Origin: a virus
Taxonomy: Duplodnaviria > Heunggongvirae > Uroviricota > Caudoviricetes
Length of the DNA: 4,627 nucleotides
IMG/VR virus record: IMGVR_UViG_2706794664_000008
Direction: 5' to 3' (one strand)
A program made the translations under genes and the position numbers. This document shows positions 4,143 through 4,538 of this stretch, one piece after another. Position 1 is the first letter of the stretch; every line of letters starts with the position of its first letter. The notes under the pieces are model-generated. The model was not told the DNA's origin. It ran no database searches and saw nothing but the letters and a program-made list of their open reading frames with translations.

Positions 4143-4538
4143 TTAATCATCATTAATATCTTTCATATTCAATTTGCAATTTTCGTAGGTCACTCCCGAC
4201 TCGCCATTAACATTAACTCCAGCTCTGATATTCCCGTTTTCTTTTACATCTACAAAAAACTGGCCTCTTGGCATCTTGAACGCAAATGTAAAACCAACAG
4301 TATCTGAATCAAAATCATCATCTTTATATATTGGGATCAAAAATGTCATCGTCGCTGGTGATGCATTGTTTGCAAAATCAAATACACCTATACTTTTGCC
4401 GAATTCATAAGAAGCTTTTCTCAATATAATCGCACCGCTGGCAGAAGGGGATGGGCACGATATCCTCAGTTGTCTGAATCCATCTGTATCCAAGTCAACG
4501 TCATTATCTGCAGATGTTTTAACGGGTAATGACTCCAA
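4143..4538 (-). CDS. Hypothetical protein, AT-rich; possibly a 5'-truncated gene cut by IS1, or a small cargo (moron) gene
   Basis: The only long ORF in a clearly AT-rich block (about mid-30s % GC by eye, against mid-50s for the baseplate genes). The annotated TTG start at 4538-4536 lies inside the IS1 terminal repeat and has no convincing SD, while the frame is open from the IS1 boundary (4524) to the TAA at 4145-4143. Internal ATGs at 4349-4347 and further downstream are alternative starts. I recognise no domain; the protein is Asp/Asn/Phe/Gly-rich. Confidence 0.4.
   Translation of the reverse strand: MESLPVKTSADNDVDLDTDGFRQLRISCPSPSASGAIILRKASYEFGKSIGVFDFANNASPATMTFLIPIYKDDDFDSDTVGFTFAFKMPRGQFFVDVKENGNIRAGVNVNGESGVTYENCKLNMKDINDD

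Follow-up and report, generated by a model that had tools for sequence, protein, structure and literature searches.

Several small exported phage proteins block the receptor or the wall-penetration step of infection. Cor of phi80, N15 and HK022 and Llp of T5 are lipoproteins, and the exported Sp protein of T4 inhibits the tail lysozyme, gp5. By description, the helical Sp and the far smaller Llp both stand apart from the protein considered here. Cor resembles it in also being tail-region cargo (PMC3594210). It differs from all three in having no Pfam or PHROG match of known function. In the definition of Juhala and Hendrix, a moron is extra DNA of deviant composition with its own terminator and its own promoter, expressed while the prophage is repressed (PMC3594210). 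The gp15 moron of HK97 encodes a small inner-membrane protein of the YebO family (Juhala et al. 2000; Cumby et al. 2012; reviewed in PMC3594210). Like it, the locus described below is an extra, low-GC cassette with a terminator of its own, lies beside the tape-measure gene within a tail operon of a temperate phage of enterobacteria, is missing in close relatives and encodes a product predicted to go to the cell envelope. The two differ in their slot (between chaperone and tape measure for gp15, between tape measure and N here) and, by description, in their product, which here is a predicted Sec-exported barrel of about 140 residues rather than an inner-membrane protein; moreover, no promoter was found for the present cassette and its exclusion role is putative. 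Pfam and PHROG searches revealed no homology to any characterised protein family. A literature search by accession found nothing, and a search of the moron literature returned only the unrelated SfIV moron.

The sequence analysed, hereafter the window, is a stretch of 4,627 nt in which five Mu-type baseplate genes, all on the minus strand, lie between two inverted IS1 ends (Table 1). A first-pass annotation, made from the letters of the window, had related it to Mu-like prophages. This holds for the tail module; the prophage as a whole is lambdoid and resembles phiP27, has an HK97-type head and encodes a Q antiterminator. Its Q gene precedes the genes for tRNA, lysis, terminase, head and tail, and all are on one strand.

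Table 1. Features of the 4,627-nt window, with the evidence for each.
Feature	Position	Strand	Evidence or remark
Left-hand IS1 end	1-91	+	Inverted relative to the right-hand copy; reverse complement of 4525-4615; BLAST links both ends; cuts the baseplate J gene
gp47/baseplate J, 5' part	92-685	-	Pfam matches and colinearity with L001; cut by the left IS1
gp46	678-1088	-	Pfam matches and colinearity with L001
gp45	1094-1627	-	Pfam matches and colinearity with L001
Gene P (GpP domains)	1605-2681	-	Pfam matches and colinearity with L001
Phage gene N (DNA circularisation/baseplate)	2678-4096	-	Pfam DNA_circ_N, E 4.9e-26; 96.8% identical to phiP27
Rho-independent terminator of the cassette (AAGCCGCCAGAAATTGGCGGTTTTTTT)	4108-4137	-	Hairpin 4137-4115, 10 pairs, 5 of them G-C, followed by TTTTTTT
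Gene-derived remnant	4143-4524	-	Last base of codon 34, codons 35-160 and stop; 100% identical to E. coli FDAARGOS_944 L001 9047-9428
IS1 inverted-repeat bases extending the frame	4525-4538	-	TTG GAG TCA TTA CC-, read as M-E-S-L-P; alien to the original gene
Right-hand IS1 end	4525-4627	-	IRR end faces the remnant; 103/103 identical to annotated IS1/IS1B

The right-hand IS1 end matches IS1/IS1B at 103 of 103 positions in more than 5000 plasmid records. The IRR ends of both inverted copies point inward and bound a 4.4-kb prophage fragment, which in several draft assemblies also makes up contigs of its own; the product is recorded there as a partial protein of Shigella sonnei. The fragment could be a composite-transposon-like unit or merely a repeat-bounded assembly node; IS1-bounded prophage fragments of this kind are typical of Shigella, and the window is most probably a Shigella contig of that sort. 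Within gene N, a masked run of N occupies 3535-3818 (284 nt); the corresponding stretch is only 257 nt long in the identical sister contigs (L025, L026) and in E. coli L001. The mask is therefore not length-preserving, so that the 472-codon N ORF of the window is an artefact and the real N has 463 aa. At the 3' end of gene P (1646-1652), a homopolymer of seven T in the window (T7) corresponds to T8 in phiP27 and E. coli L001; this frameshift alters the last P codons such that P overlaps gp45 by 23 nt, and it reads as a further sign of decay. An in-frame CACCAG hexamer in gene P (approximately 2121-2133) is present in two copies in the window, three in L026 and four in L025.

Upstream of N lies a 131-codon ORF (4143-4538, minus strand, TTG start), which the first-pass annotation had singled out as an AT-rich block foreign to the baseplate operon. 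The compositional shift is real: GC content is 0.36-0.39 over 4101-4500 against 0.50-0.59 in the baseplate genes, with flanks of about 55%. The annotated orientation, that of the tail genes, and the strong hairpin with its run of seven T on the same strand were likewise borne out, the terminator being placed between the ORF stop codon and the ribosome-binding site of N; the region contains three terminator-like sites against 0.7 expected from shuffled sequence. The further statement that the frame is open exactly to the IS1 boundary needs amendment. The ORF exists as described, but its codons 1 to 5 are the IS1 inverted repeat itself, and the gene-derived part ends at 4524, comprising 126 codons, one extra base and the stop.

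To find the origin of this part, positions 4097-4540 were compared by megablast with 5,426 complete E. coli genomes. Eleven genomes matched, all of them only up to 4524, that is, to the IS1 boundary. There it forms part of a 483-nt gene, annotated between the tape-measure gene and N; the intact relatives, E. coli FDAARGOS_944 and Shigella flexneri among them, have it at 160 codons, and the full-length protein in FDAARGOS_944 is WP_000594909.1. This product starts (M)IKPFLMTVAILTSCCAQAKILTNEEIVSRFISN-VKTSADN..., with a GTG start codon 8 nt 3' of a GGAG. The suggestion that the ORF is the C-terminal fragment of a larger gene disrupted by IS1 is thus confirmed, and the in-frame upstream part that such a fragment implies was found in the intact relatives, where it includes a signal peptide. 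IS1 took 101 nt of the intact gene: the ribosome-binding site, the start codon and the entire signal peptide, with codons 1 to 33 and two bases of codon 34. What is left encodes the mature beta-barrel part; neither the signal peptide nor the initial half of the N-terminal helix survives. These 382 nt match the intact allele in L001 without a difference, so the insertion is evolutionarily recent.

Other copies have been damaged as well. In S. flexneri SFBU1023 (L015 4561-4663), the cassette is intact and an independent IS1 lies 31 nt into gene N, so the same prophage has been struck by IS1 at differing sites across Shigella lineages. The FDAARGOS_944 prophage (L001/L024), whose cassette is intact, is itself defective, with two ISEc60 insertions in the sheath and portal genes and frameshifts in the Q and large-terminase genes; the strain carries ipaH and is therefore probably Shigella-like. 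A 100-aa protein from a Logan contig (P0007) has the last 60 residues of the protein behind an unrelated N-terminus, which points to a further independent disruption of the gene.

Might the truncated ORF still yield a product that acts in the cytoplasm as a toxin or immunity domain, starting at the TTG within IS1 or at the internal ATG (4349)? Its frame is open over 131 codons, and an IS1-fused partial protein beginning 'ESLPVKTSADN' (P0041) was found through a protein-cluster look-up to be annotated in several draft assemblies of S. sonnei. However, the spread of this allele is accounted for by clonal Shigella, and the exact IS1/ORF junction gave no match in the GTDB representative genomes. 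Inspection of the sequence upstream of both starts revealed no Shine-Dalgarno, and a site scan of the region found no promoter-like site for the ORF. Any product would be missing its signal peptide and some of helix 1, and it would have to fold in a reducing compartment. Furthermore, the neighbouring genes have decayed too, baseplate J being cut by IS1 and the end of P frameshifted. We consider expression of the remnant very improbable. The toxin or immunity-type domain suggested by the first-pass annotation finds no support, and the toxin reading was rejected: the protein has no toxin-like domain, the gene has no partner, and the product is predicted to be exported. Judged from its sequence, the window copy is a pseudogene, a dead 3' remnant that could not be exported and has no evident translation signals.

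A comparison of related prophages showed what occupies the position upstream of N when the gene is missing. The phage phiP27 is 96.8% identical to window positions 92-4100 but lacks the AT-rich block, and its tape-measure stop and N start are separated by only 15 nt; the same 15-nt junction is present in three sampled E. coli prophages without the cassette. Relative to this arrangement, the intact gene with its terminator is an insertion of roughly 550 bp. It is present in 11 of 50 E. coli genomes that carry this N gene and absent from the other 39. This distribution identifies the cassette as dispensable and optional, and not as a tail component. Together with the terminator, it bears out the proposal that the ORF derives from a phage accessory gene. 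The cassette has three of the four features by which morons are recognised in sequence (extra DNA, deviant composition and its own terminator); the fourth, its own promoter, was not found. We conclude, with a probability that we place at roughly 0.75, that the ORF is best explained overall as the promoter-less, start-less and signal-peptide-less 3' remnant of an optional phage moron cassette.

The location of the ORF between the tape-measure gene and N could also be taken to mean that it is a routine structural part, such as the C-terminus of the tape measure or a tail assembly protein, and AT-rich DNA of this sort might be non-coding altogether. In the intact loci, however, the gene is a separate ORF set off from the tape-measure gene by a stop codon and a 67-nt spacer, it begins with a Sec signal peptide, and it is lacking from the 39 related prophages and phiP27. 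Homologues extending down to 24% identity, a dN/dS of 0.12-0.36 and a confidently predicted fold establish the ORF as a real coding sequence and not a chance frame, and the last two rule out non-coding DNA. As judged by the same dN/dS values, the gene family is under purifying selection. We regard a structural or non-coding origin as scarcely credible, less so even than expression of the remnant, and retain the moron cassette as the source of the ORF.

The slot between tape measure and N is held by diverged homologues in prophages of Escherichia, Salmonella and Yersinia and in phage vB_EcoM-720R4, and identities across the homologues range from 24 to 74%. The Yersinia enterocolitica copy shares 74% identity, that of vB_EcoM-720R4 about 50%, and slot homologues in further E. 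coli prophages and in metagenomic or unattributed contigs 36-40%; one slot homologue sits in a prophage integrated in a plasmid. More distant homologues (24-28%) reside on phage-plasmid-like contigs of about 20-40 kb, beside IncFII RepA, ParA, a cI-like repressor and HigBA/MazEF. The gene has a GC content of 0.34-0.40 against 0.45-0.58 for its flanks in six of seven tail-module loci, the seventh (L013) being AT-rich throughout (0.36 vs 0.40). A hairpin with a T-run, differing in sequence from locus to locus, follows the homologue in all 10 loci examined.

Two further observations concern the neighbourhoods of these homologues. In one locus (L013 2387-2974), a HIRAN-domain gene lies alongside the homologue in the tape measure-N slot, which suggests that the junction is a cargo hotspot. 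Just upstream of the phage-plasmid-type homologues is a conserved AT-rich motif, TTATTTAAATAAATATTTAAT (L005 ~680-739, L006 ~2860-2918, L007 ~1985-2043), which may be a promoter or operator.

The family is small. A first search yielded nine clusters at 90% identity among 5.8 billion proteins, and a profile search yielded 18 representatives among 1.84 billion, three of which, the long repeat proteins P0017, P0018 and P0020, were disregarded; their match appears to run through a short repeat motif, as seen in P0017, the one that was inspected. Three partial Firmicutes matches, obtained when related loci were searched with a five-sequence alignment, were judged spurious, and the rest of that search comprised only Shigella and E. 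coli. Every source labels the proteins of the family 'hypothetical'.

The first-pass annotation recognised no known domain in the product, and our searches agree with it. Profile searches with the intact protein gave a single assignment, to PHROG 5586 (E 9.7e-89, residues 1-160 against positions 1-161 of a 161-position profile), which has no assigned function; the window copy spans only residues 35-160 of this protein. There was no match in Pfam or NCBIfam, no PADLOC-DB family at E<=1, and nothing meaningful in sequence and profile searches of the PDB. A structural search with the predicted fold likewise gave no strong neighbour.

The 11 full-length homologues were assessed for signal peptides by inspection and with a hydropathy and site script. 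All 11 have a basic n-region, a hydrophobic core and a small-x-small site at residues 18-23, followed by Lys or, in one, by Gly. The intact product is thus a predicted Sec-exported, periplasmic protein. A lipobox-like motif, L-[TI]-S-C, is present in the Shigella/E. coli clade (LTSC) and, by inspection, in the Yersinia copy (LISC), and the Shigella/E. coli and Yersinia proteins may thus occur as lipoproteins; no lipobox ([LVI][ASTVI][GAS]C) ends the signal peptide in the eight other homologues checked. In the Y. enterocolitica locus (L008 7975-8001), a good start, ATG-Lys-Lys, is found 26 nt upstream of the called one, shifted out of frame by 1 nt at an A6 run; a further A in this run would yield a textbook signal peptide (MKKTYLLVFMMLISCCSQA). 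The offset could come from a sequencing error in the homopolymer, from a frameshift or from phase variation.

Structure prediction by AlphaFold with an alignment that included the distant homologues gave a confident model (pLDDT 85.5, pTM 0.79) of one helix and an eight-stranded beta-barrel; an earlier prediction from a five-sequence alignment (pLDDT 37.6) was discarded. The mature protein of about 140 residues is accordingly modelled as a helix followed by an eight-stranded up-and-down barrel. Exactly two cysteines are found in the mature part of all 11 full-length homologues. In P0001 these are Cys57, which the model places directly behind the first strand, and Cys150, which it places inside the last one; a disulfide between them probably closes the barrel.

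How the intact gene is expressed bears directly on its role. Polymerase modified by a Q protein, as in lambda, passes intrinsic terminators. Because such polymerase would ignore the hairpin, the baseplate genes 3' of it should still be expressed in lytic growth. A terminator has nevertheless been kept after every diverged copy, which implies that some Q-independent transcription must need stopping. The intact cassette, set within the late operon, consists of 160 codons that open with GTG behind a GGAG ribosome-binding site, followed by a terminator of its own. In the model that we propose, Q-modified late transcription would read through this terminator during lytic growth. In the lysogen, the terminator would halt a Q-independent transcript ahead of the baseplate genes, so that the protein could be made there. 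The product would then be exported by Sec, its signal peptide being cut in most homologues after the small-x-small motif and before the lysine, and in the periplasm it may act as a small binder that protects the envelope. In the window, IS1 has taken codons 1 to 33 and two bases of codon 34, leaving the remnant pseudogene.

The main weakness of this model of lysogenic expression and protection is the missing promoter. A simple sigma-70 consensus scan found none upstream of the gene in L001, L007 or L009; such a scan is crude and may miss weak or non-canonical sites. In the window, IS1 stands in place of the upstream region. The lack of a promoter in the scan is what would be expected if the protein instead served the lytic cycle. 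Transcribed together with the tail genes and exported at a late stage, it might for example mask the receptor or the cell wall and so spare progeny, or tune lysis. The position of the gene within the late operon in the same orientation, its tight packing in L012 and the conservation of the slot across the 24-74% divergence range also fit such a role. Against it, the conserved mid-operon terminator would have no obvious use if transcription were purely Q-driven, members of the family are also found at a distance from tail genes, in accessory regions that resemble those of phage-plasmids, and the gene is absent from the isolated phage phiP27. We therefore think a late lytic role improbable.

For the protein expressed in the lysogen, the likeliest role would be superinfection exclusion at the DNA-injection or cell-wall-penetration step, as for other tail-operon morons. 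By analogy with HK97 gp15 and Cor (PMC3594210), we tentatively place such envelope-level exclusion first among the candidate functions, at well below an even chance. Host protection by an inhibitor or immunity-type protein ranks second and the late lytic role third. The second of these would make the protein a host-fitness factor rather than an anti-phage one: a periplasmic binder directed against muralytic enzymes or envelope toxins, such as host lysozyme, colicin- or pesticin-type bacteriocins or T6SS amidases, in the manner of PliC/MliC, PhiA or T6SS immunity proteins. We consider it unlikely. The likeness to the lysozyme and peptidoglycan-hydrolase inhibitors MliC/PliC and PhiA is only at the level of a generic barrel, and the MliC/PliC family lacks the extra N-terminal helix. 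The protein gave no match to the MliC/PliC Pfam HMM (PF09864), and the SGxxY/TKG motifs of that family are not recognisable in it. Returning to exclusion, a broader proposal is possible and more speculative: that PHROG 5586 and its distant relatives are disulfide-closed, eight-stranded barrels for superinfection exclusion or envelope protection, carried on a self-terminated cassette that moves between P27/SfV-type prophages, in their tape measure-N slot, and phage-plasmids, in their accessory regions, and that they block a periplasmic step of phage entry or toxin action.

The window copy itself matters little. It is a pseudogene in an IS1-shredded prophage fragment, one more case of genome decay in Shigella, and the locus, an IS1-inactivated moron, belongs to a known kind and is an ordinary instance of it. 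The intact family, an uncharacterised exported barrel, is a tractable candidate for study: the protein is small, predicted to be exported, under purifying selection and confidently folded in prediction, and the gene is optional in otherwise near-identical prophages and common to prophage tail operons and phage-plasmids. Should it encode a factor for exclusion or protection, a new fold would join the few prophage defences that act in the periplasm, and the tape measure-N junction, where one locus also has a HIRAN-domain gene, would be marked as a hotspot for cargo.
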